NCBI GenBank assembly: GCA_037445205.1
Contig: JBBIKX010000001.1
Location: 8,767-72,766 of the forward strand
Origin: Candidatus Wildermuthbacteria bacterium
Lineage (GTDB): Bacteria > Patescibacteriota > Minisyncoccia > Minisyncoccales > PEYH01
Length of the DNA: 64,000 nt
Direction of reading: 5' to 3'
Below the pieces are notes generated by a model, which did no database searches, was not told where the DNA came from, and saw only the letters and a list, made by a program, of their open reading frames with translations. Made by a program: the position numbers and the translations under genes. Below are positions 1-64,000 of this stretch, piece after piece. The stretch's first letter is position 1; every line of letters begins with the position of its first letter.

Positions 1-121
1 GGGCGGAAAGGTGAAGGATTTGCCGGGCATAAGATATAAAATAGTAAGGGGAAGGCTGGATACTGCGGGCGTTGAGGGGAGGAAACAATCGCGCAGCAGG
101 TACGGCGCAAAGAAAGGATAA
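1..121 (+). CDS. rpsL: 30S ribosomal protein S12, C-terminal fragment (gene starts upstream of window)
   Basis: Frame 2 translates to [39 protein letters not shown], the conserved S12 C-terminus; followed by rpsG-fusA as in the str operon. Confidence 0.85.
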
Positions 122-131
122 TTTTTAGAAA

Positions 132-590
132 ATGTCAAAAAGCAAAAAGAAAAGAGAAGTTGATCCGGATTATCTTTATGGAAGCTCTACAGTTGCCAAG
201 CTCATTAATTACATAATGAGAAAGGGCAAAAAAACCACAGCCCAGAAAATTGTTTATGGCGCTTTTGAGGTTTTAAAAGAAAAAACCAAGAAAGATCCGC
301 TTGAGGTTTTTGAAAGCGCTTTGCAAAATGCAGCGCCGATTTTGGAGGTAAGACCAAAAAGGATTGGGGGAGCGACATATCAGGTGCCAGTGGAAGTAAC
401 GCCCAAAAGAAGATTGATTCTGGCAACTCGCTGGATTATAGCGGCTGCGAAAACAAGGAAGGGGCCTATGAAAAATAATCTGGCGACAGAGATTCTTGAA
501 GCGGCCAACAATACAGGATCGGCAATCAGAAAGAAAGAAAACACTCATAAAATGGCCGAGGCAAACCGCGCTTTCGCTCATTTTGCCTAA
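132..590 (+). CDS. rpsG: 30S ribosomal protein S7
   Basis: 152 aa; S7 family motifs; str operon context. Confidence 0.95.
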
Positions 591-651
591 TATGGTAAAT
601 ATTTGCATTTAAGGCAGAACTGCCTTTTTTAATTGTAAAATTATAAAACTT

Positions 652-2772
652 ATGCCAAGAACCCATTCCTTAGAAAGATATAGAAATATAGGCATTATTG
701 CCCACATTGACGCAGGAAAAACAACAGTTTCCGAACGCGTTTTATTTTACACGGGAATTTCTCACAAAATCGGAGAAGTTCATGAAGGAGCAACAATTAT
801 GGATTGGATGGAGCAGGAAAGGGAAAGGGGGATTACCATCACCGCGGCCGCCACCACTTGTTTTTGGGTTCCGGTTGAAAAAGAAACCGGACAGGATAAT
901 CAGGAAAGGCAAAAAAATCAGTATAGAATAAATATTATTGATACTCCCGGGCATATTGATTTTACAGCGGAGGTGCAGAGATCTTTGAGAGTGCTGGACG
1001 GGGCAGTGGTTGTGTTTGACGGAGTGGCGGGGGTTGAAGCGCAATCAGAAACCGTCTGGCGCCAAGCCGACAAGTTTAAAGTTCCAAGAGTCTGCTTCAT
1101 AAACAAATTAGACAGAATGGGCGCTTCGTTTGAAAACAGCCTGCAGTCAATTCGGGACAAGCTCACTCCCAATGCCGTGGCTATTCAAATTCCCATCGGC
1201 ATTGAATCCACTTTTAAAGGAGTGATAAATCTTATTACAATGAAGGCCTTAAGGTTTGAGGGAGAGCATGGAGAAAAAGTGATTATAGAAGAAATCCCTC
1301 AAGATTTGAAGGAAGAAGCGAATAAACGGAGAAAGCAAATGCTTGAAAAAATAGTTGCCGAAGATCATGATTTGCTTGAAAAATATCTGGCCAACCAAGA
1401 AATTTCTCCCTCAGAAATAAGAAACACCTTAAGAAAAAGCGTCATCAACTACAAATTAGTTCCCGTACTTTGTGGTTCCGCCCTGAAGAACAAAGGAGTG
1501 CAGGGATTGCTTGATGCCGTTATTTATTATCTTCCAAATCCTCTTGATTTGCCTCCGGTTCAGGGGACTGATCCAAAAACAGGAGAAATAGTTGAGAGAA
1601 AATCAGAAGACAATGAGCCATTTTCTGCTCTGGCTTTTAAAATTGCCACAGACCCATTCGTGGGAACATTAACTTATTTTAGAGTTTATTCAGGAACGCT
1701 TAAGGCGGGTTCCACTATTTTTAACACTACCACCCAAGAAAAAGTGCGACTTGGAAGAATTGTAAGAATGCATGCCAATCACAGAGAAGACATAACAGAG
1801 CTTTATGCGGGAGATCTGGCAGCGGCTGTCGGTTTAAAAAATGTAAGCACCGGTCATACTCTGTGCGATATGGATCGTTTGATCGTTCTTGAAAAAATAA
1901 CCTTTCCCGAGCCGGTTATTTCTATCAGAATTGAGCCCAAGACCAAGGCCGATCAGGAAAAAATGGATACTGCCCTTAGAAAATTGGCTGAAGAAGATCC
2001 GACTTTCAGAATTAAAGTTGATCCCGAAACTGAAGAGACCATTATTTCCGGCATGGGAGAACTTCATTTGGAAATTATCGTTGAAAGAATGAAAAGAGAA
2101 TTTCAGGTTGAAGCCAATGTTGGAAAACCCCAAGTTGCTTATAAAGAAACAATTACCATGCAGGCCGAAGCAGAAGGAAAATATATCAGGCAGAGTGGAG
2201 GCAGGGGGCAGTATGGTCATGTCTGGATTACTGTTGAGCCAAGAGAGAGGGGAGAAGGATATGAATTCGTTGATAAAATCAAGGGAGGCATTATTCCAAG
2301 AGAATTTATTCCCGCCGCAGAAAAAGGGATAAAAGAGGCGCTGGAGAAAGGAGTAGTCGCAGGGTACCCTTTGGTTGATATTTTGGTTACTCTTTTTGAT
2401 GGTTCTTTTCACGATGTCGATTCGTCGGAAGCTGCTTTTAAAATCGCAGGTTCCATTGCCCTGCAGGATGCGGTTAAAAAAGCAAAGCCGGTGCTTTTGG
2501 AGCCCGTTATGAAGCTTGAAGCGGCTTTTCCTTCGGAATATTTTGGAAGCGTAATCGGCGATTTAAATTCCCGGAGAGGAAAAGTCTTTGAGACGCTGGA
2601 CAGAATGAATTTAAAAATCGCCAGAGCATATCTGCCCTTGGCGGAAATGTTTGGCTATGCGACCACGATCAGATCATTGACTCAGGGGCGCGGATCATTT
2701 ACTATGGAATTTGACCATTATGCGCAGGTTCCATCAAACATCGCGCAAAATTTAATGGGAGTAAAAAAATAA
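652..2772 (+). CDS. fusA: Elongation factor G
   Basis: 706 aa; [13 protein letters not shown]1 motif, DTPGHIDF; EF-G domain order. Confidence 0.97.
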
Positions 2773-2776
2773 ACAT

Positions 2777-3049
2777 ATGGATTTCAGCTTGATTAAAAGA
2801 ATACTGGCCAAAGAAAAAACAAAAATTGTCATCGTGGAAAACGGCGTACCCACAATGATTATTTCAAGCATTGAAGATTATCTTTCAGGAGAAGAGAAAA
2901 CCGCCAAAGAAAAAATCGGCATGGAAAAAATCGGCATGGAGGAAAAAAAAGAAAGCTTTTTATCCGCTCCCAAGAGAGAAGAAGATGTTTTTTTGCCCAA
3001 AAGCGGGGAATTTACCGAGGAGCTGACTATTGATGATTTGCCTCTTTAG
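2777..3049 (+). CDS. Small acidic hypothetical protein; N-terminus resembles Phd/YefM antitoxin fold (weak)
   Basis: 90 aa ORF between fusA and tuf; N-terminal KIVIVENGVPTMIISSIEDY pattern; acidic C-terminal tail; contains EKIGMEKIGME tandem duplication. Confidence 0.4.
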   Translation: MDFSLIKRILAKEKTKIVIVENGVPTMIISSIEDYLSGEEKTAKEKIGMEKIGMEEKKESFLSAPKREEDVFLPKSGEFTEELTIDDLPL

Positions 3050-3093
3050 TGCTATATTCTGTATGAGCGTCACTTGATGATTGATTTCTGTTA

Positions 3094-3130
3094 TCAATCC
3101 TTGGGCGCAAAAAGGATTGACTTTTATTTT
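3094..3130 (+). terminator. Intrinsic terminator after small ORF (stem TCAATCCTT/AAGGATTGA plus T-run)
   Basis: 9-bp perfect stem, 9-nt loop, followed by CTTTTATTTT. Confidence 0.55.
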
Positions 3131-3144
3131 AAAAATAATATAAT
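3117..3144 (+). promoter_or_regulatory. Sigma70-like promoter for tuf (TTGACT - 16 nt - TATAAT)
   Basis: Near-consensus -35/-10 hexamers about 30 nt upstream of tuf ATG. Confidence 0.5.
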
Positions 3145-3172
3145 TAAAAAAAATTAAACAAAATTAATACAT

Positions 3173-4372
3173 ATGGCAGAAAAAGAAAAATTTGAGCGCA
3201 CAAAACCGCACCTTAATGTAGGAACCATTGGGCATGTTGATCATGGAAAAACTACACTAACGGCTGCAATTTTAAAAGTCCTGAAACTTAAGGGTCTTAG
3301 AGCGTCTGAAAAAGACGTTGATCAAATTGACTCGGCGCCGGAAGAAAAAGCGAGAGGACTTACAATCAACATCACTCACGTTGAATATGAAAGCGACAAA
3401 AGGCATTACGCCCACATTGACTGTCCGGGGCACGCCGATTACATCAAAAATATGATTACAGGCGCAGCCCAGATGGATGGGGCTGTTCTTGTTGTTTCAG
3501 CGGTGGATGGCCCGATGCCTCAAACTCGCGAACACATACTTTTAGCAAGACAGGTGGGCGTTCCCGCAATCGTTGTATTCTTAAACAAATGCGATTCGGT
3601 GGATGATCCAGAAATGATTAATCTTGTGGAATCTGAGATAAGAGAGCTTTTGAAGAAATATAATTTCCCCGGAGATCAGACTCCCATTATCAGGGGATCT
3701 GCGCTTAAAGCCCTTGAGGCAAAATCTGCTGATGATGAATCTGCAAAGCCCATTCTTGAATTGGCAAAAGCACTTGATGAACACGTGCCTGAGCCGGTCA
3801 GAGAAAAAGACAAGCCATTTTTAATGGCCGTTGAAGATGTTTTCTCAATTGCGGGCAGAGGCACTGTTGCTACAGGAAGAGTTGAAAGGGGAATGGTAAA
3901 ATCCGGCGAGGAAATAGAAATAGTCGGGATCAAGCCCACAAGCAAAACAACGGTTGTGAGCATTGAGATGTTTAATAAAATCCTTGACGAAGGATTTGCC
4001 GGAGACAATGTTGGAATTCTTTTAAGGGGTCTTAAAAAGGAGGACATCGAGAGAGGGCAGGTTTTGGCAAAAACCGGCTCAATCACCCCTCATGCCGAAG
4101 TTGATGCAGAGGTTTATATTTTGACAAAAGAAGAGGGCGGAAGACACACGCCGTTTTTTGCCGGCTACAAGCCCCAATTTTACGCCCGAACAGCGGATAT
4201 TACCGGAGAGGTGACTCTTCCTCAGGGAACAGAAATGGTTATGCCCGGTGATACCGTCAATTTGAAAATTAAATTGATTGTGCCGGTGGCCATTGAAGAA
4301 AAACAAAGATTTGCCATCAGAGAAGGAGGAAAAACAGTGGGCGCGGGAGTAGTCACAAAAATAATCAATTAG
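3173..4372 (+). CDS. tuf: Elongation factor Tu
   Basis: 399 aa; [22 protein letters not shown] motifs. Confidence 0.97.
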
Positions 4373-5477: not shown

Positions 5478-6119
5478 ATGTTGACAGACGTTTACAATCA
5501 AAAAGGCGAAAAAACAGGGCAAGCGCAACTGCCCAAGGAGATTTTTGGAGTAAAATTCAGAGCTGATTTGGTGCATCAGGTGTTTTCTTCCATGGTTTCA
5601 AACAAAAGAAGGCCCATCGCTCACGCAAAAGACAGGGGAGAGGTGAGGGGCGGAGGGAAAAAGCCCTGGCGCCAGAAAGGAACGGGCAGGGCAAGACATG
5701 GTTCGATCAGGTCTCCTTTATGGAGAGGCGGCGGGGTTACTTTTGGTCCAAGAAACGAAAGAAATTTTAAAAAAAGCATACCTAAAAAAATGAAAAGGTC
5801 AGCGCTCTTTTCCGTTTTGTCAGCCAAATTAAAAGATAATGAAATTATTGTTTTAGATAATCTTTTCCTGAAAGAACCCAAAACAAAATTAATGGACGAA
5901 ATCCTTGATAATCTTAAAAAAGCCGGTTTAAAGCAAAAAAACTGCTTGATTATTCTTCCAAAAAAGGATAAAAATATAGGACTGGCAGCAAGGAATATCG
6001 CGAAAATAAAAACCGCCCAAATAAATAATTTTAACATTTTAGACATACTTTCGTTTAAATACCTGCTTTTTACAAAAGAAACCATCGGCGCGATGAAAGA
6101 AACATTGATAAAAGATTAA
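5478..6119 (+). CDS. rplD: 50S ribosomal protein L4
   Basis: 213 aa; operon position after L3. Confidence 0.93.
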   Translation: MLTDVYNQKGEKTGQAQLPKEIFGVKFRADLVHQVFSSMVSNKRRPIAHAKDRGEVRGGGKKPWRQKGTGRARHGSIRSPLWRGGGVTFGPRNERNFKKSIPKKMKRSALFSVLSAKLKDNEIIVLDNLFLKEPKTKLMDEILDNLKKAGLKQKNCLIILPKKDKNIGLAARNIAKIKTAQINNFNILDILSFKYLLFTKETIGAMKETLIKD

Positions 6120-6120
6120 T

Positions 6121-13170: not shown

Positions 13171-13173
13171 TTT

Positions 13174-16405: not shown

Positions 16406-16461
16406 CGATTGGATCATATTATATTACTATAAAGAATCCCAAAAAAGATAAGGAGGTAGTG
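16402..16461 (+). promoter_or_regulatory. Promoter (TTGACG - 17 nt - TACTAT) plus conserved leader ending in AAGGAGGTAG for cassette A
   Basis: Leader ATATTATATTACTATAAAGAATCCCAAAAAAGATAAGGAGGTAG is near-identical to the leader at 56351-56387. Confidence 0.45.
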
Positions 16462-16839
16462 ATGAGAAGGATAACGCTTTTAGTAGGACTAGTTCCGCTT
16501 TCGCTCTGCACGGTTTTGGCGAGTCATTTCCTTGAGCTGCGCGGTTTCCATTACGAGCAAGCCGCTGTCTTATTTCTTCCTTTCTTAATATGGCTGACCT
16601 TATTGCGGCTTGTGGAAGGGTCAAGGGCTTGGATAGCTTGGATCGGATTTGGAACCGCCAGCGCATTGGGCGGTTTCGTTGTTTTTTCGGTGGTTCTGCA
16701 TCATCTTGCAGAGTGGAAAATAGGCCTTTGTCTCATCATGTTAGTTGCCTACTGTTTTGCCTGTGGGTTCGTTGGCCTGCTTGGTTACGATATCTGGAAG
16801 CTACAGCGCCACAATCGCGACAAGAAGAAAAAATCGTAA
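16462..16839 (+). CDS. GC-rich small membrane protein (about 4 TM), cassette A
   Basis: 125 aa from ATG 16462, 8 nt after AAGGAGG; GC far above flanks; hydrophobic. Confidence 0.6.
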   Translation: MRRITLLVGLVPLSLCTVLASHFLELRGFHYEQAAVLFLPFLIWLTLLRLVEGSRAWIAWIGFGTASALGGFVVFSVVLHHLAEWKIGLCLIMLVAYCFACGFVGLLGYDIWKLQRHNRDKKKKS

Positions 16840-16882
16840 CAAAGCAGAGCCGGGCAGATGGGGAAATTGAGGTTGGGATGTC

Positions 16883-16916
16883 GGGGGCATAGCTAGGCCC
16901 CCTTTTTCTTTTTTTG
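16883..16916 (+). terminator. Intrinsic terminator (GGGGGC/GCCCCC stem plus T-run) ending cassette A
   Basis: GC hairpin followed by TTTTTCTTTTTTT. Confidence 0.55.
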
Positions 16917-16961
16917 AAAAAGATGATAGAATAAAAAAGATAAAGAATTAATTTAAAAAAA

Positions 16962-39156: not shown

Positions 39157-39175
39157 AAAATTGAGAATATATTAT

Positions 39176-39250: not shown

Positions 39251-39253
39251 CAA
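39235..39253 (+). repeat. Direct repeat copy 1 (AATCCCCTTGGGTCCGCAA) = 3' end of tRNA-Asp; putative attL
   Basis: Identical 19-mer recurs at 40465-40483. Confidence 0.7.
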
Positions 39254-40531: not shown

Positions 40532-40589
40532 GGTTGAAATTTTTTTTGATTCTGATAGATTGAAAAAATAACCAAAAGGAGGTGAGACA

Positions 40590-41588
40590 GTGTCTTGCGA
40601 TACAGCCGTTATCGTGAATGTGCAGGCGGGCGCGGGAATGACTCGCTGGAAGTTGGCGCATCTTATGCGCCAGTTAAACCGCATTCTTTCTGTGCCCAAG
40701 AGTTGTGTCTGGCTGACTCGGGAAACCGGCGAGAGCAGCGCCACATCCCTGGCATCTTTTGCCCAAAGCAGAGGGGCCAAAGCAGTGATTGTCTTTGGCG
40801 GAGACGGCACGGTTCATCAGGCAGTAAACGGCCTGAAACTGCCCGATCCTTCAATCTCTGTTGGCATTGTGCCCTGCGGTACGGCCAACGTGGTTGCTTC
40901 CTGCCTTGGAATGCCAAGAAATGTCAAAGCGGCGCTGGAAGTCATAAGGGCCGGAATGACAAGAAAGATCGATCTGGGAATCCTGGAGGGAGATGGCCTT
41001 CCAAGATACGCGGTTTCCACGCTAAGCGTGGGACTTGACGCGATGATAAACGAACTGGCGCATCGTGTTAAGCCCCTGTTTCGGAAATACCATCTGCCAT
41101 CCATCTTGGGCTACATTCCGCCTCTTCTTAGATACACTCTTAATGAAGTTCCGCTCTACGATGTAGCTGTCAAAAAGGATGGATTGGTTTTTTGCGAAAG
41201 GATATCCTTTCTGGCAGTAACAAACACTCCATGGTATGGAGGCGGATTGGTGGACAGAACTGCCAAGCTTGACGACGGGCTGTTTAACATGATATGCGCC
41301 AGAAAGATCAGGTCCCGCGATCTTCCCTGGTGGATGTTTCAGATGTGGCAGGGAAATCACATCTATTATCCCAAGGTTTTTCTGCCCTGCTCTTCGTTTT
41401 CAGGATTAAGCATAAGTTCTGACTTTCCCTTGCCCGCGCAGATTGACGGACAGATTCTGCCCGCCCGGAAGAACATCGCAATCTCTGTCGTTCCCCGCCT
41501 CCTGCAGGTTTTCGCACCTTTGCCCCAACCAGAAAGAACAAAGCATTCTGGTTGGGGTTGTTTTTTTGATATGTCCAGGTTCAGATAG
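40590..41588 (+). CDS. Lipid kinase of the YegS/BmrU/DgkB family (diacylglycerol-kinase catalytic domain)
   Basis: 332 aa, GTG start 8 nt after AGGAGGTG; VIVFGGDGTVHQAVNGL (GGDG) and VTNTPWYGGGL; about 57% GC. Confidence 0.8.
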   Translation: MSCDTAVIVNVQAGAGMTRWKLAHLMRQLNRILSVPKSCVWLTRETGESSATSLASFAQSRGAKAVIVFGGDGTVHQAVNGLKLPDPSISVGIVPCGTANVVASCLGMPRNVKAALEVIRAGMTRKIDLGILEGDGLPRYAVSTLSVGLDAMINELAHRVKPLFRKYHLPSILGYIPPLLRYTLNEVPLYDVAVKKDGLVFCERISFLAVTNTPWYGGGLVDRTAKLDDGLFNMICARKIRSRDLPWWMFQMWQGNHIYYPKVFLPCSSFSGLSISSDFPLPAQIDGQILPARKNIAISVVPRLLQVFAPLPQPERTKHSGWGCFFDMSRFR

Positions 41589-41647
41589 ATATTGACCAAA
41601 ATATTCTTTTATGATATAATTTGGATATCCTAAGGAGGTGATGCGTG

Positions 41648-41815
41648 ATGAAGGCGGGTATAGTGATTTTCCGGCATACACAAGTAGAAACGCTGCAGGC
41701 GACGGTTAACGCGTTTCTCAAGGTTCACGCTCCACATATGGAGAACCTTGAGCATCAGCTGGTAGTGACTCCAGACGGCACTATCGTCTTGACCCTGCTT
41801 TATCGGGCTAAGTAG
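41648..41815 (+). CDS. Small GC-rich hypothetical protein (55 aa)
   Basis: Manual translation MKAGIVIFRHTQVETLQATVNAFLKVHAPHMENLEHQLVVTPDGTIVLTLLYRAK; TAAGGAGGTG SD 6 nt upstream; below ORF-track cutoff. Confidence 0.5.
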   Translation: MKAGIVIFRHTQVETLQATVNAFLKVHAPHMENLEHQLVVTPDGTIVLTLLYRAK

Positions 41816-41837
41816 GGTTCGTAAGGAGGGAGGAACG

Positions 41838-42101
41838 ATGCGTAAGCTCTTTGCGGCGATTGTCGGACTCTACCGTCGGCTCTGGATGATTGAGCCCCGC
41901 CGTTTCAAACGGGGACAAATCATCCAGTTCGAAGACTGGCGCGATGGCATTAGAGTTGCCAAAGCCAGATACCTGGTTCTCGGCAATACACCCTCCGAGA
42001 AGAGGTACGTCCTGGAGGGTGTTGGGCCCGGCAACAAGGGGAGGCGCGAGCGCCTTCGCTTCCGCTGGGTTGACAAACACGCACATTTGGTGCGCGGCTG
42101 A
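41838..42101 (+). CDS. GC-rich hypothetical basic protein (87 aa)
   Basis: GTAAGGAGGGAGG SD; no known domain. Confidence 0.55.
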   Translation: MRKLFAAIVGLYRRLWMIEPRRFKRGQIIQFEDWRDGIRVAKARYLVLGNTPSEKRYVLEGVGPGNKGRRERLRFRWVDKHAHLVRG

Positions 42102-42111
42102 AATGCCTGTT

Positions 42112-42155
42112 CCGCCCGGGACTAAGGAGGAGTTCCGGGCGGTTGTTGTTTTTTG
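42112..42155 (+). terminator. Intrinsic terminator (CCGCCCGG/CCGGGCGG plus TTGTTGTTTTTTG)
   Basis: 8-bp GC stem, long loop, U-tract after the 87-aa ORF. Confidence 0.6.
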
Positions 42156-42204
42156 ATGAAGTTTCTGGTATCGTATCAAGTATCGCACATTGGGAGGTGG
42201 AACG

Positions 42205-42348
42205 GTGCACAAATGGGTAATCTTTGCGGTAGTGGTGATCCCAAGCATTCTCATCGGTTCCCTTATCTGCCTTTTCCAAGGAAAGGGCAGAAGAGTGTGG
42301 TCCTTCGCTAAGGGGAGAGTCTTTGCTTGGGCGGAAACGGATTGGTGA
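42205..42348 (+). CDS. Tiny hydrophobic membrane peptide (47 aa), GTG start
   Basis: VHKWVIFAVVVIPSILIGSLICLFQGKGRRVWSFAKGRVFAWAETDW; GGGAGGTGG SD 5 nt upstream; hairpin AACCGGC...GCCGGTT downstream. Confidence 0.4.
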   Translation: MHKWVIFAVVVIPSILIGSLICLFQGKGRRVWSFAKGRVFAWAETDW

Positions 42349-45631: not shown

Positions 45632-47557
45632 ATGACAAAAAAAGATAAGGCCTCGGAGGGTTATAGTGCAAAAGATATTTTTGTATTGAAAGGATTGGAG
45701 CCGGTGCGCAAAAGACCGGCGATGTATATTGGCTCAACGGGGCCAGACGGGCTTCATCATCTAATTTGGGAATGTTTGGACAATGCCATTGATGAGGCGA
45801 TGGGAGGATACGCTACAGAAATTGAAGTGGTTTTATTGCCCAAAAACCGGGTAAAGGTTACTGACAACGGCCGCGGGATTCCTGTTGATATTCATCCCCA
45901 GACCAAAAAATCTGCCCTTGAAACGGTGATGACGACCCTTCATGCAGGCGCAAAATTTGACAGGAAAGTATACCAAATTTCAGGGGGACTGCATGGAGTC
46001 GGAGTTTCTGTCGTATGCGCTCTTTCTTCCTGGATGAGGGTTGAAGTATGCCGTCAGGGACATCGCCATTCCCAAGAATACGAGAAAGGCAAGCCCCAGA
46101 CGAAAGTGAAAAAAGAAGGAACTTGCAGACAATCCGGCACCGCTGTAATTTTTGATGCCGACCCGGAAATTTTTTCTCAAATCAAATATGACAGAAAAAG
46201 GGTCATTTCTCATTTGAGGAGACAGGCATATCTTACAAAAGGCGTGAGAATAAAATTCAAGGATTTGCGCGAAGGAGAATTTGAATACACTTTTTATTTT
46301 GAAGGCGGGCTCCGTTCCTACATAAAGTTTTTAATCGGCAACAATACTCCTCTTCATCAGGGCGTTTTTTACGTCCAAAAGGAAAAGGACGGAATTATTT
46401 CAGAGGCCGTATTCCAGTATACGCAGGAAAGAGAGGGCTGGGAGGAGGGTTTCGCGAATAACATTTATACAGTTGAGGGAGGTAGCCATTTAACCGGCTT
46501 TCGCTCCGCCTTAACGCGCAGCCTGAATGATTACGCCAAAAAGAATAACTACATAAAACCAGAAGAAGATGGTTTTTCCGGCCAAGACGTGAGAGAGGGT
46601 TTGAACGCGGCTGTTTCCGTGAAAATTAAAGAACCGCAGTTTGAGGGCCAGACAAAAACAAAACTTGGAAATCCCGAGGCAAAATCGGCGGTAGAGTCAG
46701 TTGTGGGAGAGGTGCTCAGCGATTTTTTGGAGAGAAATCCCCAAGATGCCCGGTTAATTGTGGAAAATTGTCTTTTAGCCGCAAAAGCGCGTCAGGCGGC
46801 AAGGGCGGCGCGCCAGACAATCCTTCGCAAGGGTATTTTAGATGGATTGAGCCTTCCCGGAAAACTGGCCGATTGCATTATGCGCAATCCGAGCCAAGCA
46901 GAGCTTTTTATCGTAGAGGGAGAGAGCGCGGGCGGCTCTGCAAAAATGGGAAGAGATAGGAAATTTCAGGCGATCCTCCCCCTTAGGGGAAAAATTTTAA
47001 ATGTTGAAAGGGCGAGGCTTGATAAAATTTTGTCATCTGAAGAAATCAAAGCGCTTGTAATTGCATTAGGCACTGCCATTTCTCAGGATTTTGAAATAGA
47101 CAAGATAAGGTATCATAGGATTATCATTATGACCGATGCGGATGTAGATGGCGCTCATATAAGAACTCTTCTTTTAACGCTTTTTTACAGATATTTTAAG
47201 CCGGTGATAGATATGGGATATCTTTATATCGCCCAGCCTCCGCTTTATAAAATCCAATCGGGAAAGATTGTAAAATATGCCTACACAGAGGGTCAGAAAG
47301 AAAAATTCATAAAAGAGATCCAGAAAGGAGAAGTGAAAAATATTAATATACAAAGGTATAAAGGTTTGGGAGAAATGAACCCCGATCAGCTCTGGGAAAC
47401 GACAATGAATCCTTCCCAGAGAATGTTAATGCGGGTAGCAATTGAAGAGGCCAAAGAAGCCGATAAGATATTTGATATTCTGATGGGCAAGGAGGTTTTT
47501 CCAAGAAAAAAATTCATTCAGGCGCACGCCAAAAGCGTCAAAAACTTAGATATTTAA
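45632..47557 (+). CDS. gyrB: DNA gyrase subunit B
   Basis: 641 aa; GHKL ATPase, TOPRIM EGDSAGG, PLRGKILNVE. Confidence 0.95.
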   Translation: MTKKDKASEGYSAKDIFVLKGLEPVRKRPAMYIGSTGPDGLHHLIWECLDNAIDEAMGGYATEIEVVLLPKNRVKVTDNGRGIPVDIHPQTKKSALETVMTTLHAGAKFDRKVYQISGGLHGVGVSVVCALSSWMRVEVCRQGHRHSQEYEKGKPQTKVKKEGTCRQSGTAVIFDADPEIFSQIKYDRKRVISHLRRQAYLTKGVRIKFKDLREGEFEYTFYFEGGLRSYIKFLIGNNTPLHQGVFYVQKEKDGIISEAVFQYTQEREGWEEGFANNIYTVEGGSHLTGFRSALTRSLNDYAKKNNYIKPEEDGFSGQDVREGLNAAVSVKIKEPQFEGQTKTKLGNPEAKSAVESVVGEVLSDFLERNPQDARLIVENCLLAAKARQAARAARQTILRKGILDGLSLPGKLADCIMRNPSQAELFIVEGESAGGSAKMGRDRKFQAILPLRGKILNVERARLDKILSSEEIKALVIALGTAISQDFEIDKIRYHRIIIMTDADVDGAHIRTLLLTLFYRYFKPVIDMGYLYIAQPPLYKIQSGKIVKYAYTEGQKEKFIKEIQKGEVKNINIQRYKGLGEMNPDQLWETTMNPSQRMLMRVAIEEAKEADKIFDILMGKEVFPRKKFIQAHAKSVKNLDI

Positions 47558-50429: not shown

Positions 50430-50434
50430 TTTTT

Positions 50435-53540: not shown

Positions 53541-55024
53541 TAAATTCATCAAAAAAATATATTCCCGTCATCGGGCTTGAAATACATACGGAATTAAAAA
53601 CTAATTCCAAAATGTTTTGCGGGTGCAAAAACGATTCGCAGGAAAAAGAAGCGAATTTGAATATTTGTCCTGTTTGCATGGGTCATCCCGGCACTCTCCC
53701 CGTTATAAACAAAACAGCGATTCGTTTTGTCATAAAAACAGGGATTGCTCTGAATTGTAAAATTACAAAAGAGTCGCGATTTGAAAGAAAAAATTATTTT
53801 TATCCCGATCTTCCAAAAGGATATCAGATTTCTCAATACAAAGAGCCGTTTTGTTTTAATGGCTTTTTAAAAATAAATAATAAAAAAATAAGAATTAGAA
53901 GGGTTCATTTGGAAGAAGATACTGCCCGCCTGATACACTCCAAAAATGGATATTCGCTGATTGATTTCAACCGCGCCGGCATTCCTTTAATGGAGCTTGT
54001 AACGGAGCCGGACATAGAATCTTCTAAAGAGGCATCAGACTTCGCAAAAAAACTTCAGTTGATCCTGAGATATTTAAATGTTTCCAGCGCTGACATGGAA
54101 AAAGGGCAATTGAGAGTGGAGGCAAATATTTCATTAATAAACGCAAATTTTAAAGCAAAAAACGCAAAACTAGGAACAAAGGTGGAGATCAAAAATTTAA
54201 ATTCGTTTAGGGCAGTTGAGAGGGCGATAGAATATGAAATAGAAAGGCAAAAGGAGTTACTATTAAATGATGAGAGGGTGGCGCAGGAAACAAGAGGATG
54301 GGATCCTCAATCAGAAAGAACCTTTCCCCAGAGAGAAAAAGAAGAGGCGCATGATTACCGCTACTTTCCAGAGCCGGATTTGCCCCAGATTTATATAAAA
54401 AAAGACTATCTGGAGGCGATAAAAAAAGGAATTCCCGAACTTCCCGATCAAAAAATAAAAAGATTAAAAGAAGAATTTTTTGTTAACGAACAATCAGCCC
54501 AGATTCTTGTCTCTAACAGAGATTTAAGCGAGTATTTTGAAAAATCGGCAAGCGAGCTTTTAAGATGGTCAAAAGACAAAAGATTAGATCAAAAGAGCCA
54601 AAAAGAATTGATACAGAGCGCCGCCAACTATCTTTTGACAGATTTACTCGGCTGTCTTTCAGGGAAAGAATTTTCAGAAAAAGATTTTCCCATAACGCCT
54701 GAAAATTTCGGAGAGTTTATCGCTCTTGTCCGCGATAAAAAATTCACAAGCAAAATGGCAAAAATTCTTTTAGGAGAGATGTTTGATTCCGGCCAAGATC
54801 CCTCAACCATAATAAAAAAAAGAGGATTAATCCAGACGGACAACGAAGATGAGATTAAAAAAATAGTGCAAAAAATAATTTCATCAAATCCTCGGGCATT
54901 TGAAGATTATAAAAAAGGAAAAGAAAATGCTCTTCAATTCATGATTGGACAAATGATGAAAGAAACTAAAGGCACTATAAATCCCCAGATGGCAAAGAAA
55001 GCGTTGATTGATTTTTTAAAATAA
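53537..55024 (+). CDS. gatB: Asp/Glu-tRNA amidotransferase subunit B
   Basis: 495 aa; IGLEIHTELKT...MFCGC N-terminus. Confidence 0.95.
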   Translation: MINSSKKYIPVIGLEIHTELKTNSKMFCGCKNDSQEKEANLNICPVCMGHPGTLPVINKTAIRFVIKTGIALNCKITKESRFERKNYFYPDLPKGYQISQYKEPFCFNGFLKINNKKIRIRRVHLEEDTARLIHSKNGYSLIDFNRAGIPLMELVTEPDIESSKEASDFAKKLQLILRYLNVSSADMEKGQLRVEANISLINANFKAKNAKLGTKVEIKNLNSFRAVERAIEYEIERQKELLLNDERVAQETRGWDPQSERTFPQREKEEAHDYRYFPEPDLPQIYIKKDYLEAIKKGIPELPDQKIKRLKEEFFVNEQSAQILVSNRDLSEYFEKSASELLRWSKDKRLDQKSQKELIQSAANYLLTDLLGCLSGKEFSEKDFPITPENFGEFIALVRDKKFTSKMAKILLGEMFDSGQDPSTIIKKRGLIQTDNEDEIKKIVQKIISSNPRAFEDYKKGKENALQFMIGQMMKETKGTINPQMAKKALIDFLK

Positions 55025-55135
55025 TATATAATACTTAAAATCCAGAATAAGGAGGTGGTCGCCGGGATACAGTCCAAAGAGGGCGAGGGGCGTTTTCGGA
55101 AGCAAAACCGGATCTTTCTTGCGAAAGGAGCATCG

Positions 55136-55333
55136 ATGCCAGCAGTAAATCTTGTTAACGTGGCGAGGTCATTGCCGGACGAAGAGGCGGAGAGGCTTTT
55201 GCTCATCGAGCAAAGCAATCCTGATTGCCTCAGGGCGCTTTTTGCGGTCGTTCTGAGCGCCGGAACGCTGGAAAAAGCTGTTCCTCTGATCCAACGAGTT
55301 CTTGCTGGCGCACCCTTGTTTCCGGGCGGATGA
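55136..55333 (+). CDS. GC-rich small hypothetical protein (65 aa), cassette C
   Basis: MPAVNLVNVARSLPDEEAERLLLIEQSNP...; AAAGGAG SD 7 nt upstream; second AAGGAGGTGG at 55050; shares locus with the miaA 3' end on the opposite strand. Confidence 0.45.
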   Translation: MPAVNLVNVARSLPDEEAERLLLIEQSNPDCLRALFAVVLSAGTLEKAVPLIQRVLAGAPLFPGG

Positions 55334-56341
55334 AACTGGATGGGGCTCCCTTCGGGAGCCCCCTTGTTTTGTTAAAAAAGTATTTATTATTTTTCTGGCT
55401 TTTTTTTTATCCCCAACCCAATTTACTCTTTTGTCTTTTTTAAACCAGGTTATTTGTCTTTTGGCGTAACTTTCAATTGCTTTTTGGAGCATTCCGACCA
55501 TTTCATCATAGCCAATTTTTTTTTGAAGATAGCAAGCAATATATCTGTATTCCAATCCAAATTCTTCAAGCCGTTTCCAGGAAACGCCGTCTTTTCTTAG
55601 CGCTCTGACCTCTTTTATCATCCCCTGATTTAATCTTTTGTATAGCCGTTTTCTGATTAAATTTTTTAGCTCTTTTTTTTCTTTCTTGATGCCGATAATG
55701 AGCAAATCAAACAATTGGCTTTTTTTTATGACGGGTACCGGTTTTTTTGATTTCAAAACTATTTCAATTGCCCGGATTAATCTGCGGGGATTTTTTTTAT
55801 CAATAATTTTTGCCCGCCGCGGGTCCAGTTTTTTTAACATTTGATAAAGCTGGTTTGGCAATTTTTTTTCCAGTTTTTTCCTTAATTTCCAGTCCGGCGG
55901 AATTTTTGGGATGACGATTCCGTCAACGACTGATTGAATATAGAATCCGGTGCCGCCGCAAAGAATGGGCAGCTTATTTCTCTTATGGATTTCCCTTATT
56001 TTTTTTAATGCCATTTTTTGATACTGGGCGACCGTAAATTTCCTTTTTGGAGAAGCAACATCCAAAAGATGATGTTGGATGCCTCTATAAAGATATGACT
56101 GTTTTGAAATTTGAGATTTAGGACTTGGAGTTTGTTTAGAAATTAGAAATTTGGAATTAGAAATTTTATCTCGTGGAACCTTCCCGGTTCCGATATCCAT
56201 TTTGCGATAAACCTGACGGGAATCGGCCGAAATCACCTCTCCGTTAAAATTTTTTGCCAGTGCTACCGCCAAATCGCTTTTTCCCGAAGCAGTGGGTCCA
56301 AGAATAACTAACAATATTTTTCGGTCCGTTTTTTTTGACAT
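55169..56341 (-). CDS. miaA: tRNA dimethylallyltransferase with about 75-aa aberrant C-terminal extension read through a GC-rich cassette
   Basis: 390 aa; ILGPTASGKSDLA P-loop; canonical C-terminus (...RQITWFKK...) reached about 75 aa before the stop. Confidence 0.88.
   Translation of the reverse strand: MSKKTDRKILLVILGPTASGKSDLAVALAKNFNGEVISADSRQVYRKMDIGTGKVPRDKISNSKFLISKQTPSPKSQISKQSYLYRGIQHHLLDVASPKRKFTVAQYQKMALKKIREIHKRNKLPILCGGTGFYIQSVVDGIVIPKIPPDWKLRKKLEKKLPNQLYQMLKKLDPRRAKIIDKKNPRRLIRAIEIVLKSKKPVPVIKKSQLFDLLIIGIKKEKKELKNLIRKRLYKRLNQGMIKEVRALRKDGVSWKRLEEFGLEYRYIACYLQKKIGYDEMVGMLQKAIESYAKRQITWFKKDKRVNWVGDKKKARKIINTFLTKQGGSRREPHPVSSARKQGCASKNSLDQRNSFFQRSGAQNDRKKRPEAIRIALLDEQKPLRLFVRQ
55342..55374 (+). 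terminator. Intrinsic terminator with UUCG tetraloop (GGGGCTCCC-TTCG-GGGAGCCCC plus CTTGTTTTGTT)
   Basis: 9-bp GC stem, TTCG loop, U-tract; lies inside the extended miaA reading frame on the other strand. Confidence 0.6.
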
Positions 56342-56387
56342 AATCCCAAGAATATTATATCATTATAAATCCCAAAAAGGAGGTGGT
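56335..56387 (+). promoter_or_regulatory. Promoter (TTGACA - 17 - TATCAT) plus conserved leader and AAGGAGGTGG for cassette B
   Basis: Consensus -35; leader ATATTATATCATTATAAATCCCAAAAAGGAGGTGG is near-identical to the cassette A leader. Confidence 0.45.
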
Positions 56388-56389
56388 TA

Positions 56390-56683
56390 ATGTCGTATTA
56401 TTTAGCAATAATGTTTATGTTGCTAAGCGCAGGCTTTGCAAGTGCGGGGTTTAGGGTGATCCGTTATGCCCTTCGAGGAAAGCTGACAGGCACTATGCTT
56501 GATAGAGGCATGATACTCGGTACTGTCATCGTGCTTGTTGGAGTGGGGCTCGCCACGATTCCCATCATCTTCCAGAGCGGGATAAGATGGTGGTGTCTTG
56601 CGCTGGCGCTTGTGGAGGCAGTGGTCTGTATTGGGCTCTGGATGCTGCATGTCTTCTCGTCTGCGTCAATGGATTCACCCTAA
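56390..56683 (+). CDS. GC-rich small membrane protein (3 TM), cassette B
   Basis: 97 aa; strong SD; about 50% GC; opposite orientation between miaB and miaA. Confidence 0.6.
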   Translation: MSYYLAIMFMLLSAGFASAGFRVIRYALRGKLTGTMLDRGMILGTVIVLVGVGLATIPIIFQSGIRWWCLALALVEAVVCIGLWMLHVFSSASMDSP

Positions 56684-56694: not shown

Positions 56695-56730
56695 CGAGGG
56701 CTCTCTTGTGCGGGGGCCCTCCTTTTTTAT
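56695..56730 (+). terminator. Intrinsic terminator (GAGGGC/GCCCTC plus T6) ending cassette B; the miaB stop codon sits in its T-tract
   Basis: GC hairpin and TTTTTT. Confidence 0.55.
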
Positions 56731-58061
56731 TCCATCAATTTTCCTCTCAGTCCGTATGGACCAATGTTTATTATTTTGGCTTTAACAAAATTTCCTAAAA
56801 TATTTTTATCTGATTTCAATCTAATGGTTTGATAATGCCTTGTTTTTCCGACATAAAAATCATTTTTTTTGGTGAGTATCAAAACTTCCGCGGTTTTTTT
56901 AAAAAACTTCTTGTTAAAATTTAAAATGGTTTTTTTTAATACTTTGAATAATTCTTTTTCTCTTGTTTTTTTCTTAAAGTTGGGGACATCGTCGTTTAAA
57001 TGAAGGGCGGCTGTTTGAGGCCTTTTAGAATAAGCCGCAATATATCCAAACGCAAATCCGATTTTTTCAAAATTATTTTTTGTATTTTCAAATTGTTTTT
57101 TGGTCTCGCCGGGAAATCCTACAATTACATCAGAAGATACAGCCACTTCTTTTTCGATGCCGCATCTGTATTTTTTAAAATTATTTCTTATTTTTTTAAT
57201 AAGCGCTTTATATTGAGATACAGTGTAGGGCCTATTCATTTTTTTAAGGATTTCATTGTCTCCTGATTGAATTGGAAGATTAATATAGGGCGTTACTTTA
57301 TGGCATTTTGCCATTGTTTTAATTAGTTCGTCGCTTAAATCTTTTGGATGAGAAGAGGTAAATCTTATCCAAAAATTCCCCTCAATATCATTTATCATTT
57401 TAAGAAGCGTTGGAAAATTTATTTCTTTTTCTTTTTTCACTTTAAGGTTTGTGTTTTGGATTTTACCATTATAGGAATTGACATTCTGTCCCAACAGCCA
57501 TACTTCTTTTGCTCCGCTTAAAACGGCCTTTTTTATTTCACAAATAATATCTTGGGCCGGCCTTGAGATTTCTTTTCCTCTTACATAAGGTACGACGCAA
57601 TAACTGCAGAAATTATTGCACCCGGTCATTATCGGAATATAGGCAACAACAGGGGATTGATATTTAGGCATTAATTCAAAATAGTGTTTTTTTTTGAATT
57701 CAACCGACCTAATTTTAAAACCAAGCTTTTTTAATATCTCGGGCAATTTGGGAAGCTCATTTATGTCAAAGATTTCATCGCAGAATTTATTAAGTTCTTT
57801 TTTGTCTTTTTCTAAGATACATCCCGTTAAAATAATTTTATATTTTATATTTTTATTTTCATATTTGAGCCTTATCTTTTTAATTCGAGCGCTTGCTCGA
57901 TCTATCGCCGACTGTCTGACTGAACAGATATTAAACACTATCAAATCCACCCCATCGCATTTATTGGCATGATTAAATCCTGATTTTTCCAAAACGCCTG
58001 CGATTCTTTCGGAGTCAGATTTATTCATTTGGCACCCAAAAGTGATAATATGATATTTCAT
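56727..58061 (-). CDS. miaB: tRNA methylthiotransferase (MiaB/RimO radical-SAM family)
   Basis: 444 aa; MTTF CxxxC and radical SAM CNNFCSYC motifs, TRAM C-terminus. Confidence 0.9.
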   Translation of the reverse strand: MKYHIITFGCQMNKSDSERIAGVLEKSGFNHANKCDGVDLIVFNICSVRQSAIDRASARIKKIRLKYENKNIKYKIILTGCILEKDKKELNKFCDEIFDINELPKLPEILKKLGFKIRSVEFKKKHYFELMPKYQSPVVAYIPIMTGCNNFCSYCVVPYVRGKEISRPAQDIICEIKKAVLSGAKEVWLLGQNVNSYNGKIQNTNLKVKKEKEINFPTLLKMINDIEGNFWIRFTSSHPKDLSDELIKTMAKCHKVTPYINLPIQSGDNEILKKMNRPYTVSQYKALIKKIRNNFKKYRCGIEKEVAVSSDVIVGFPGETKKQFENTKNNFEKIGFAFGYIAAYSKRPQTAALHLNDDVPNFKKKTREKELFKVLKKTILNFNKKFFKKTAEVLILTKKNDFYVGKTRHYQTIRLKSDKNILGNFVKAKIINIGPYGLRGKLME

Positions 58062-61928: not shown

Positions 61929-61983
61929 ATCCCCCGGAGGTGCGTTAGTTCATTTTAACACCTTTTGGGGGATAGAGACAACG

Positions 61984-62859
61984 TTATGCTGGTTTATAGA
62001 CACGGTTTACCAGCACTTGGCGGGCAAACGTCACCCTCCATGTCGGGCCTACGAATCCGACTTCCCGGAGCAGTTGTTCCCATTGCGGAATTGCGAGGAA
62101 GGTGTATGTTCCTTCTTTTCCCTTTCTTTGTATTTCAAGGGCGTGACGAAGTATGCTTGTGCCCTGAAGAATTCGGCTAAAATCCCGATTTCTTATGTAG
62201 GGCAGAGGATTGAGCATGTCAGGAAGAGAAGCGACAAACACCCATTGGAAGTGAACGTTTTGTCTGGGAGTAGACCAGACGATATGTCCTCCGGGCTTGA
62301 GCACCCTATGCATCTCTCTGAAAACTTCCCTCATGGCCCTTATGCCTTTTTCGCTTCGAAAGTCAGTTGCATAGGGGATAACTAAATTTGCGATAATTCC
62401 ATCAAAGTGGTTATCGTCGAAGGGAAGTTCTTCGCCAAGATGAGCGAAAACAAGATGCATGGGCAACGTGGGGTGAAGAGATTGCGTTTTCCGCGCCGGA
62501 TCAAGAACTATATCCAGACCAACTACCAATTTGATAGTTCTGCCGGATTTGTTCCATGCCAAGAGAGCCATCTTGGCGGGTCCGCAGCCTACATCCAGCC
62601 AAACTTCGTTAGCTTTGGGCTGGATTAATCCGGCGACTGTCGTTGTAAGGTTGTGGTAGGGTCTTGCCTTTTCCAGGTTTTTGTAAATCCTTGCGTAATC
62701 CCTCCAAAACGCCAACTCTTGTCCCCAAGAGCGGATCCTTCCTCTTGTGAAGGGCGAAAGCCCGTTCTCATTTGCTTCCAGCCACTCTTCTATGCTCTCC
62801 GTGCTTAATCCTTCTCCAAAGCACGGCCCAAGGATCTCTGATATGCTTTTGGTTTTCAT
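61984..62859 (-). CDS. GC-rich class I SAM-dependent methyltransferase (small-molecule/UbiE-like rather than DNA MTase)
   Basis: 291 aa; LDVGCGPAKMA motif I; no (D/N)PP(Y/F); own TTGACA-17-TATAAA promoter and AAGGAGGTAAGGA SD upstream. Confidence 0.8.
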   Translation of the reverse strand: MKTKSISEILGPCFGEGLSTESIEEWLEANENGLSPFTRGRIRSWGQELAFWRDYARIYKNLEKARPYHNLTTTVAGLIQPKANEVWLDVGCGPAKMALLAWNKSGRTIKLVVGLDIVLDPARKTQSLHPTLPMHLVFAHLGEELPFDDNHFDGIIANLVIPYATDFRSEKGIRAMREVFREMHRVLKPGGHIVWSTPRQNVHFQWVFVASLPDMLNPLPYIRNRDFSRILQGTSILRHALEIQRKGKEGTYTFLAIPQWEQLLREVGFVGPTWRVTFARQVLVNRVYKPA

Positions 62860-62939
62860 TCCTTACCTCCTTGCTTGCCCGATAAATCAAAGGGCTGTGT
62901 TTATTTTTTATAGCCGTATAGCAGGAATTTGTCAATTTT

Positions 62940-64000
62940 CTATTCTTCAATGATTTCTTCTATTTCCTCGGCAATAATTTTTGGGATTTCGTTTTCAAAA
63001 TTAACGCGGCCCGAAATGAAAACAACTTTATTTTCCTGCAGGGCGGCCGGATTTTTTTCAATGATGCTTGGAAAAATAACCGTTTCTATTTTCTCTGAAA
63101 GGTCCTCAATTTCAACAAAAAGCATTGGTTTGCCGTTCTTGGTGATAATTCTTTTTATTTTGTTGATGAGTCCGCCAATCTTTATTCTGGTCCCCGGCAT
63201 AATTTTTTTGACAAACGAGATGGGAAAATTATTTTCTTTATTTACGCCATTTTGGTAAATCTTTACTATGGGAGTTGTTTTTTCAGCGATTATTTTCTCC
63301 ATAGACCTTAGAGGATGTCCGGAAATATAAAGGCCCAGCAGTTCTTTTTCCCACAAAAGCTTTTCTTTTTCATGGGCATCTTGGCAATCTTCCATTTTCA
63401 GGCCGGGATTAATTTTGGGCAATCCGTCAAAAAGCCCTTTTTGCCCGTTAGATTTTGACTTTTTAAGCTCTCTATTATATTCAAGCAATCTCTCCAAATT
63501 TTTCAAAAGCTTGTTTCTTTTTTCGAGGTTGTCAAAAGCTCCCGCCTTGATAAGCGCCTCCATTGATTTTTTATTGAGATCTTTGCAATCTATGCGATGG
63601 ATAAAATCGCTGATTGATTGGTACTTGCCATTTGATTTTCGTTCTTTGACGATTGTTTCTACGATATTGTGCCCCACGTTCTTAATCGCCAAAAGCCCAA
63701 AGCGGATCTGATTTTTTCCTACCACGCTGAAGTTTTCAAAGCTTTCATTGATGTCGGGACCAAAAACTTCAATTTTCATTCTTTTGCATTCTTCCAAAAG
63801 AAAAGCGATTCTTTCCACGTCCTGTTTTTCGCAAGCCAAAACAGACGCCATAAACTCCACCGGAAAATGCGCTTTTAAATACGCGGTTTGATGCGCAATT
63901 GTCGCGTATCCGACGCTGTGGCTTTTGTTGAATCCATAACTTGCGAACGGCAAAAACCATTGCCATATTTTCTGGGCGATTTCTTTTTTAATGTCTTGAG
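62940..64000 (-). CDS. dnaE: DNA polymerase III alpha subunit, C-terminal portion (gene continues beyond window end)
   Basis: YGFNKSHSVGYA motif; reading frame stays open upstream to the window edge; OB-fold tail. Confidence 0.85.
   Translation of the reverse strand, partial: QDIKKEIAQKIWQWFLPFASYGFNKSHSVGYATIAHQTAYLKAHFPVEFMASVLACEKQDVERIAFLLEECKRMKIEVFGPDINESFENFSVVGKNQIRFGLLAIKNVGHNIVETIVKERKSNGKYQSISDFIHRIDCKDLNKKSMEALIKAGAFDNLEKRNKLLKNLERLLEYNRELKKSKSNGQKGLFDGLPKINPGLKMEDCQDAHEKEKLLWEKELLGLYISGHPLRSMEKIIAEKTTPIVKIYQNGVNKENNFPISFVKKIMPGTRIKIGGLINKIKRIITKNGKPMLFVEIEDLSEKIETVIFPSIIEKNPAALQENKVVFISGRVNFENEIPKIIAEEIEEIIEE

Follow-up and report, generated by a model that had tools for sequence, protein, structure and literature searches.

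Why should a bacterium whose genes mostly do without a Shine-Dalgarno (SD) motif keep nearly perfect ones in front of a few genes, all of them unusually GC-rich? The question is raised by a 64-kb stretch of DNA, called the window (W) below, which is 39% GC and holds its housekeeping genes in one long co-directional run: rpsG-fusA-tuf, the S10, spc and alpha ribosomal operons, secY-adk-map, murA, mreB, gatCAB, pheST and gyrB, together with secE-nusG-rplK, a thyA-folA-dcd-tmk block, miaA/miaB, thrS and dnaE. A preliminary description had taken the SDs of the GC-rich open reading frames (ORFs) as a strong marker of horizontal transfer. Our preferred answer, which we hold with some confidence but well short of certainty, is that a stable, selected, SD-dependent minority regime coexists with SD-independent initiation in a Parcubacteria-type bacterium of the candidate phyla radiation (CPR).

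Shine-Dalgarno motifs and base composition in the window

For 78 curated genes, the duplex energy between the 20 nucleotides (nt) upstream of the start codon and the anti-SD 5'-ACCUCCUUA-3' was calculated; match length and spacing were scored against the full tail complement TAAGGAGGTGATC, and a second set of energies was obtained with the 13-nt canonical tail. The energies were bimodal. Seven genes, at 16462, 40590, 41648, 41838, 42205 and 56390 on the + strand and at 62859 on the - strand, fell at -11.5 to -13.5 kcal/mol, and these are exactly the genes with a GC content of at least 0.48 (0.48-0.58). The remaining 71, referred to as native, have a GC content of 0.28-0.45 and energies of -8.6 kcal/mol or weaker, mostly above -4. 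The association of SD with GC-richness is 7/7 versus 0/71 (Fisher's exact test, p=3e-9). At working distance, -9 kcal/mol was reached by no native gene (0/71), and only 4/71 were at -6 kcal/mol or stronger, versus 10% of random 20-mers. The preliminary description had listed fusA (+0.9 kcal/mol), tuf (+1.7), rpsJ (-3.1), rplC (-0.9), secY (-3.5), murA (-1.4) and gyrB (+0.6) as lacking SDs, and the scan within W agreed in every case; the AGGAGG sites in front of many low-GC native genes that it had named as contrary evidence did not appear. Leaders of fusA and tuf (652..4372, +), which are representative, are AT-rich (e.g., ttataaaactt ATG), and infA, rpmJ and rpsZ, added later to the scan, are likewise SD-less behind AT-rich leaders. 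Hidden native SDs were not found when up to 40 alternative in-frame starts were considered per ORF, the sole new match being an internal GGAGGAGG in rpsC. That SD-less native genes are typical of the CPR also held, the median strong-SD fraction being 0 in 124 related loci, mostly from the CPR.

The motifs of the seven SD-led genes match TAAGGAGGTGATC over 7-12 nt, leaving 4-8 nt to the start codon; their duplexes with the canonical tail of 13 nt reach -12.8 to -19.4 kcal/mol. In base-pair order, TAAGGAGGT lies 4 nt from the start of 16462, AAGGAGGTGA 4 nt from that of the kinase gene at 40590, the 12-nt TAAGGAGGTGAT 5 nt from 41648, TAAGGAGG 8 nt from 41838, GGAGGTG 5 nt from 42205, AAGGAGGTG 4 nt from 56390, and AAGGAGGT 5 nt from the methyltransferase (MTase) gene at 62859. 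Complementarity is not confined to GGAGG: the TAA and GTGAT on either side of it also match the canonical tail, an indication that the motifs pair with the 16S 3' end. The 9-mer AAGGAGGTG is present in four copies in W, all on the + (coding) strand, versus 0.31 expected from shuffles (13-fold), and four copies were reached in 0/100 shuffles. The claim that all GC-rich ORFs have perfect SDs thus stands for six ORFs and the MTase gene, but not for 55136, which has only AAAGGAG (-9.4 kcal/mol with the 13-nt tail); similarly, one exact motif on every insert is true of the four 9-mer sites but not of the remaining ones.

Native starts have a context of their own. U is found at -1 in 73% of them, A makes up 0.45-0.61 of positions -3 to -7, G is at most 0.15, and G/C are few; U at -1 and the A-rich stretch may together be a lineage-specific start signal for SD-independent initiation. 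The mean minimum free energy over -20..+20 is -2.0 kcal/mol for native genes versus -4.4 kcal/mol for the GC-rich units. At third codon positions, the GC content (GC3) of all eight GC-rich ORFs, 55136 included, is 0.50-0.68, compared with a native mean of 0.38 (standard deviation 0.04, maximum 0.47), and the shift is mainly towards NNC over NNU, AAG over AAA and CTG/CTC over TTA. Expression-linked codon optimization was rejected as the cause of the raised GC3: the ribosomal protein (r-protein), tuf and fusA genes have the same usage as other native genes, with no correlation with the shift in the cassettes (r=0.17). The GC-rich codon shift follows no r-protein bias, because the genome shows essentially none.

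Each GC-rich block is a self-contained unit consisting of a sigma-70-like promoter, an SD, an ORF and an intrinsic terminator. The best sigma-70-type promoter matches in a scan of 39-57 kb sit directly upstream of SDs, and the strongest intrinsic terminators directly follow ORFs (at 42112, 55342 and 56696); promoter and terminator matches coincide with the unit boundaries, and the raised GC extends from the SD to the terminator, the promoters being AT-rich. Only the lipid kinase and the MTase matched Pfam; most of the other ORFs are predicted to encode small membrane proteins. Over the GC-rich blocks there was no Rfam match beyond noise, and no integrase or transposase was found adjoining any unit. 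An assembly chimera was considered and rejected: the unit junctions recur in independent Logan contigs of SRR11582151 and in the sister metagenome-assembled genome (MAG) GCA_964383555.1, and they are therefore not assembly artefacts.

Inheritance of the kinase and methyltransferase genes

Relatives were fetched using gyrB (45632..47557, +), a native gene without an SD, as the anchor, and the loci discussed below (L003 and L004, from the samples SRR21427515 and SRR8371833; L085 and L086, both from a sister genome; L170, L173, L176, L178 and L179) were compared with W by pairwise identity. In genome and metagenome contig scans, the closest species representatives by gyrB were Parcubacteria/Paceibacteria MAGs at 69-73% identity; closer relatives (86%) are known only as Logan contigs. 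The uL30 gene is absent between rpsE and rplO (12694-13617), and rplK is followed directly by thyA and not by rplA-rplJ-rplL (50007-51265), a junction also present in L003 and L004. Gene order, the missing uL30, the rplK-thyA junction and the gyrB relatives, taken together, suggest a member of the CPR, probably of the uL1-lacking subgroup of Parcubacteria.

In the kinase island, a promoter-like TTGAAA-16-TAGATT, TG-extended, and the SD AAGGAGGTGA at 40576-40585 (40534..40585, +) precede a YegS/DAGK-type lipid kinase of 332 amino acids (aa; 40590..41588, +; GC 0.52, GC3 0.55; Pfam DAGK_cat 5e-25 and YegS_C). The top promoter match of the 39-57 kb scan (TTGACC-17-TATAAT, TG-extended) and the 12-nt SD TAAGGAGGTGAT come next (41592..41642, +), ahead of a 55-aa ORF (41648..41815, +; GC 0.51) in the variable middle of the island that is absent in L004 and different in L003. 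The SD TAAGGAGGGAGG leads an 87-aa Arg-rich ORF of GC 0.58 (41838-42101, within 41822..42101, +), an intrinsic terminator follows (42112..42152, +; 12-bp stem, nine GC pairs), and GGGAGGTG leads a 47-aa peptide with a single transmembrane segment that starts with (V/M)HKW (42205-42348, within 42192..42348, +), below called the MHKW peptide.

L003 and L004 have the kinase gene at the site that it occupies in W, in the order gatCA, hypothetical gene, tRNAs, kinase, pheS-pheT-gyrB; L179 is more distant, and its kinase gene is directly upstream of pheS. Kinase amino acid identity is 0.52 between W and L003 and 0.77 between L003 and L004, compared with 0.46 and 0.80 for pheT, and the fourfold-site match of the kinase gene (0.46) is inside the native range of 0.37-0.47. 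Because kinase identity tracks that of the neighbours, the gene has been co-inherited with them since the lineages split. Outside the clade its best matches are at most 36% identical, the family being clade-restricted, and an ancient acquisition is possible. The kinase SD was kept in 4/4 lineages (W, L003, L004 and L179), as GGGAGGTGAGATT in L003 (gene GC 0.50), AAGAGGTGAGATT in L004 (0.45) and AAAAAGGAGGAGGTAAGAG in L179 (0.38); the L179 gene has a native-like GC3 of 0.27 and yet is SD-led. The MHKW peptide is SD-led in 3/3 genomes (GAGGGGGGTGAAATA ATG in L003, GGAGGAGGTGAAATC ATG in L004), and the intergenic DNA around it could not be aligned between W and L003 by blastn.

The surroundings of the kinase gene are less uniform. 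A tRNA-Met, tRNA-Met, tRNA-Asp cluster (38977-39251) lies 1.3 kb upstream of the island in W, and an AT-rich orphan membrane-protein gene (39306-40373) is located between the two; in L003, the kinase gene is nearer its tRNA region. The segment from the kinase gene to the MHKW peptide or pheS is lineage-variable (W 41589-42204, L003 11015-11590, L004 1171-1440, L179 1094-1727). W has two ORFs there and L004 none, and the single 114-aa ORF of L003 looks unrelated. The segment is GC-rich in W, L003 and L179, the L179 version being hairpin-rich DNA.

On the - strand, the class I S-adenosylmethionine (SAM) MTase gene (61984..62859, -; 291 aa, GC 0.49, GC3 0.50; Pfam Methyltransf_11 and related families) is led by the SD AAGGAGGT at 62865-62872 and a promoter-like TTGACA-17-TATAAA at 62907-62935 (62865..62935, -), and its downstream partner encodes a HisKA_7TM histidine kinase (60330-61928, -). 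The order dnaE-MTase-HisKA_7TM-thrS-yjbQ-miaB is kept in L170, where the MTase is 59% identical to that of W and its neighbours are 48-62% identical; percentage identities of the MTase and the adjacent histidine kinase are 51/50 in L173, 48/47 in L176 and 58/61 in L178. Xenologous replacement of the GC-rich MTase gene was rejected, as the gene has diverged in step with dnaE, the histidine kinase gene, thrS and miaB. About 75 homologues, 41-59% identical, make up the family; an extra PlsC-type acyltransferase (PF01553) domain is found in more distant ones, two of which are named Sungbacteria. From this family membership and these distant homologues, the MTase looks like a Parcubacteria gene and not an outside import. 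Its SD was kept in 4/5 lineages (W, L170, L173 and L178), only L176 being SD-less, while gene GC spans 0.29 to 0.49: the motif is GAGGAGGTGAGG in L170 (gene GC 0.44), AAAGGAGGTGAG in L178 (0.37, genome 0.34) and TGGAGGTAAAAAA in L173, where gene and genome GC are both 0.29. The MTase and HisKA_7TM genes (60330-62859, -) form an adjacent pair also in L170, L176 and L178, and the acyltransferase-bearing homologues hint at a lipid-related role for the MTase.

Overall, the SD was retained in about 10/12 orthologous cases, which is far beyond chance because strong SDs precede only 62/1776 genes (about 3.5%) in low-SD loci. As the lineages are related, the argument is a rough one, but it favors selective retention. 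Moreover, because the compositionally native orthologues (the L179 kinase gene and the L173 and L178 MTase genes) keep their SDs, the motif is not a passive relic of recent import; as judged from these sequences, SD state follows the gene family and not GC content. The trend extends beyond W: in 107 low-SD loci, strong-SD genes exceed the others by a mean of 3.6 GC points (p=2e-8), and the SD-led minority, where examined, is accessory, including pyrE/pyrD/pyrF-like genes in L006 (Ca. Paceibacter normanii), ThiF/ThiS-like genes in L009 (a Minisyncoccales MAG) and a radical-SAM gene in L178. Another SD-led GC-rich member of the class lies outside W, in L086 upstream of the counterpart of W's rpsL-rpsG (5591-6397, -): a gene for a 268-aa sigma-70 region 4 protein (GC 0.49, GC3 0.51) with CAAAGGAGGTGAAT before its ATG.

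Weighing the proposed minority regime against its alternatives

Under a selected minority regime, housekeeping genes, mostly in long operons, would be initiated independently of SDs on AT-rich, weakly structured leaders, and a small class of stand-alone accessory units would depend on unusually long canonical SD:anti-SD pairing of 8-12 bp, at 4-9 nt from the start codon. The set would comprise the lipid kinase with its small membrane peptide and variable small ORFs, the MTase coupled to a 7TM histidine kinase, and the orphan membrane proteins. Selection would maintain the SDs since the ribosome would retain and use the canonical 16S 3' tail (...GAUCACCUCCUUA), and a strong SD could offset the more structured start regions of GC-rich genes, GC-richness then being a secondary, lineage-specific trait and not the cause of the SD. 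An SD that is a selected, gene-specific trait implies a working anti-SD, and the ribosomes of the W lineage very probably read SDs.

Several observations pull the other way. The GC3 of every unit is above the native maximum, which vertical inheritance over saturating divergence does not account for; candidate explanations are incomplete amelioration of an ancient import, mRNA-level selection, or GC-biased gene conversion in recombined accessory loci, the last suggested because the 16462 unit is 92-98% identical to its sister versus 78-83% for the flanks. No rRNA was found in W (using Rfam) or in the 169 of 181 fetched loci that were searched with conserved 16S/23S oligonucleotides, and an anti-SD motif was detected in only 48% of Parcubacteria, the lineages without it overlapping the uL1-lacking group (Tsurumaki et al. 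2022, PMC9297842). If the 16S tail truly had no CCUCC, the conserved SDs would be a genuine paradox; the conserved perfect SDs argue that the W lineage either keeps a functional canonical tail or presents just that paradox. The perfect 9-mer at 55049, 78 nt further upstream of the 55136 ORF's own SD, has no ATG, GTG or TTG at working distance. Finally, the 16462 ORF differs from that of L085 by 9 synonymous and 21 non-synonymous codons, a near-neutral pattern, and the small SD-led ORFs are genes by prediction only.

The transfer reading proposed in the preliminary description is partly supported: horizontal transfer is still a plausible origin of the orphan ORFs and, if ancient, of the kinase gene, whereas a recent transfer of the kinase and MTase genes is not supported, given their synteny and co-divergence. 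Atypical composition and codon usage, as expected of a genomic island, are present in the units; patchy distribution and incongruence with flanking genes, equally expected, were not found for these two genes, which occupy the same syntenic sites in diverged relatives and, in the pairwise-identity test, diverge with their flanks. It is improbable, in our judgment, that the GC-rich blocks were recently imported from an SD-using donor of higher GC content and that their SDs are unselected baggage, maybe unread by the host ribosome. Such an import would fit the GC3 of 0.50-0.68 versus 0.38 +/- 0.04 with its preference for NNC over NNU and AAG over AAA, the promoter and terminator carried by each unit, the orphan status of the 16462 and 56390 ORFs, the tRNA cluster near the kinase island, and, at the 16462 unit, both the 14-nt imperfect direct repeat and an identity to a sister genome so far above that of the flanks as to suggest recent exchange. 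It does not fit kinase and MTase genes that are syntenic and co-diverge with their neighbours at 46-62% identity, or SDs that persist where the gene has native AT-rich composition; there is also no close donor in sight (kinase matches outside the clade are 36% or less), no integrase or transposase was found, and neither were viral relatives of the two genes. Phage origin was rejected on this last ground, the neighbours being ribosomal, tRNA-synthetase and replication genes. An outright artefact, whether foreign GC-rich reads joined into a chimera or native SDs concealed by wrongly called starts, we regard as almost negligible; nothing specific speaks for it except that the source is a metagenome-assembled contig, whereas the junctions are reproduced in independent Logan contigs and the sister MAG, synteny holds in diverged relatives, and no hidden native SDs emerged.

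Two further alternatives concern what the motifs do. The ribosome may not normally engage SDs, its 16S tail being unavailable as in Bacteroidia or its anti-SD altered, and the conserved 8-12-nt SDs would then mark a small translational regulon switched on conditionally or by a specialised ribosome subpopulation; lasting GC-richness would be a by-product of a separate expression or recombination regime. The strict avoidance of SDs by native genes beside a few conserved genes with extreme ones favors such gating, as do the flavour of the class (a lipid kinase, membrane peptides, an MTase beside a 7TM histidine kinase and the L086 sigma-70 region 4 protein), the reported anti-SD anomaly of uL1-lacking Parcubacteria, and the Flavobacterium precedent, in which SD-led rpsU is translated by bS21-lacking ribosomes (PMC9976891, PMC13000453, PMC7797042). 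However, an intact, freely used anti-SD alongside SD-independent initiation is a simpler account, as in many mixed-usage bacteria, and we give a gated regulon the same low standing as recent import. Less likely still is that AAGGAGGTG-like motifs act mainly on RNA, as 5' stabilisers of the Bacillus STAB-SD type or as binding sites for another factor. Here the start-less motif at 55049, near a predicted 5' end, is the main attraction, together with the identical 15-mer of L170, which stands before an ORF of only three codons, the real small ORF coming after it. All other motifs are 4-9 nt from the start of a conserved or long ORF, and the 55049 leader is not unusually structured (z=0.25) and has no Rfam match. 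In any case, STAB-SD action requires 30S binding via the anti-SD, so the need for an anti-SD would be left standing.

Among known systems, Bacteroidia are the closest functional analogue: their native genes are SD-less with A-rich, "Kozak-like" leaders, the anti-SD is sequestered, and a few genes (rpsU) keep strong regulatory SDs (PMC7797042, PMC9976891, PMC13000453). W resembles them, and Flavobacterium in particular, in genome-wide absence of SDs, an A-rich upstream context and a tiny minority of genes with extended, conserved SDs. It differs in belonging to the CPR, in that its SD-led genes are GC-rich accessory envelope and signalling genes rather than rpsU or prfB, and in the strong U at -1 of its native genes; rpsU, rpsR and rpsF are located outside W, and any sequestration of its anti-SD by bS21/bS18/bS6 is hypothetical. 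As in the uL1-lacking Parcubacteria (PMC9297842), there is no uL30 gene between rpsE and rplO and no rplA after rplK, and SD-less native genes fit a reduced anti-SD role, although SD usage in mRNAs is outside the scope of Tsurumaki et al. The units are also like phage morons in having their own sigma-70-type promoter, ORF, intrinsic terminator and deviant GC between conserved genes, but they are outside a prophage, and at least two of them, instead of having been added sporadically, are ancient and syntenic and have been inherited vertically. Gene finders already allow for mixed ribosome-binding sites (RBS) and for atypical gene classes (GeneMarkS-2, PMC6028130), and W likewise combines more than one upstream signal type with a compositionally atypical class in one genome; the difference is that in W the two features coincide (7/7 vs 0/71) and SD state is heritable per gene family.

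What is new is thus the near-perfect coupling of SD and GC in a CPR genome and the inheritance of SD state by family across lineages. GC-richness with a perfect SD need not mean recent foreign DNA in SD-poor CPR genomes, and the annotation of CPR MAGs needs two RBS models, the small SD-led ORFs being probably real genes. The conserved motifs are indirect evidence that reduced ribosomes still read SDs, which bears on the published loss of the anti-SD in many uL1-lacking Parcubacteria, and the units offer a compact, testable set of genes on which to examine whether SD strength serves CPR bacteria as a regulatory tag. A compositional puzzle remains in the high GC3 of vertically inherited genes. 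Were a specialised-ribosome regulon true after all, it would be the first outside Bacteroidia, and in an ultra-small symbiont.

Orphan units and a leader without a start codon

The 16462 unit consists of a promoter-like leader with the SD TAAGGAGGT at 16450-16458 (16406..16461, +), an orphan 125-aa predicted membrane protein without a Pfam match (16462..16839, +; GC 0.48, GC3 0.52), and an intrinsic terminator, GGGGGC...GCCCCC followed by a T-run (16884..16915, +). Among 5.8e9 proteins, the only homologues found for its product were itself and one other at 83% identity. The 56390 unit is similar, with a promoter-like TTGACA-17-TATCAT and the SD AAGGAGGTG at 56377-56385 (56335..56385, +), an orphan 97-aa predicted membrane protein, again without a Pfam match (56390..56683, +; GC 0.51, GC3 0.56), and a terminator (56696..56731, +); no true homologue of this protein was found among 1.84e9 representative proteins. 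A recent origin of the orphan ORFs is possible.

Alignment of W 15231-17240 with L085 gave a mosaic: the adk 3' end is 99% identical, map 83%, the 16462 unit with its intergenic region 92-98% (the intergenic region itself 98%, against 83% for the flanking map) and GT2 78%, a pattern that indicates frequent homologous recombination between strains. The 14-nt imperfect direct repeat AAAAAAGATAAGGA / AAAAAAGATAAAGA (16441-16454 and 16933-16946) brackets the unit, and both copies sit just upstream of start codons; the repeat may have arisen by target duplication or by copying of a leader, or be due to chance in A-rich DNA.

The 55136 unit is preceded by a promoter-like TTGATT-17-TATAAT and the orphan perfect SD TAAGGAGGTGGTC of the 55049 motif (55004..55060, +). 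The motif itself contains the only in-frame GTG nearby and is some 10-20 nt away from where the transcript is predicted to begin. The AT-rich inverted repeats around this unit are possibly due to chance. The shorter SD AAAGGAG then leads a GC-rich 65-aa ORF (55136-55333, within 55124..55333, +) that is antisense to the 3' tail of the miaA ORF, and an intrinsic terminator, GGGGCTCCC TTC GGGAGCCCC with a T-run, closes the unit (55342..55372, +). In L170 (~15600-15660, -), the identical 15-mer AAAGGAGGTGGTTAA (AAAAGGAGGTGGTTAA; W 55048-55060) is followed by a 3-codon ORF (MLV and stop), and in both genomes a AAAGGAGCAT-led small ORF lies further downstream, by about 65 nt in W and 55 nt in L170. 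This sharing suggests a conserved leader device, for example a standby site or a STAB-SD-like stabiliser. Folding of 55039-55145 showed no unusual stability (z=0.25).

The miaA ORF runs about 70 codons beyond its conserved end (55169-55380, -), antisense through the 55136 unit and its terminator hairpin, and in L170 miaB and miaA are fused into a single gene of 745 aa. Between fusA and tuf, W has a 90-aa ORF (2777-3049) that is native in its AT-richness and has no SD; it gave a sub-threshold match to the Phd/YefM antitoxin family (E=0.007), and an 85-aa counterpart is located at the same site in L086.

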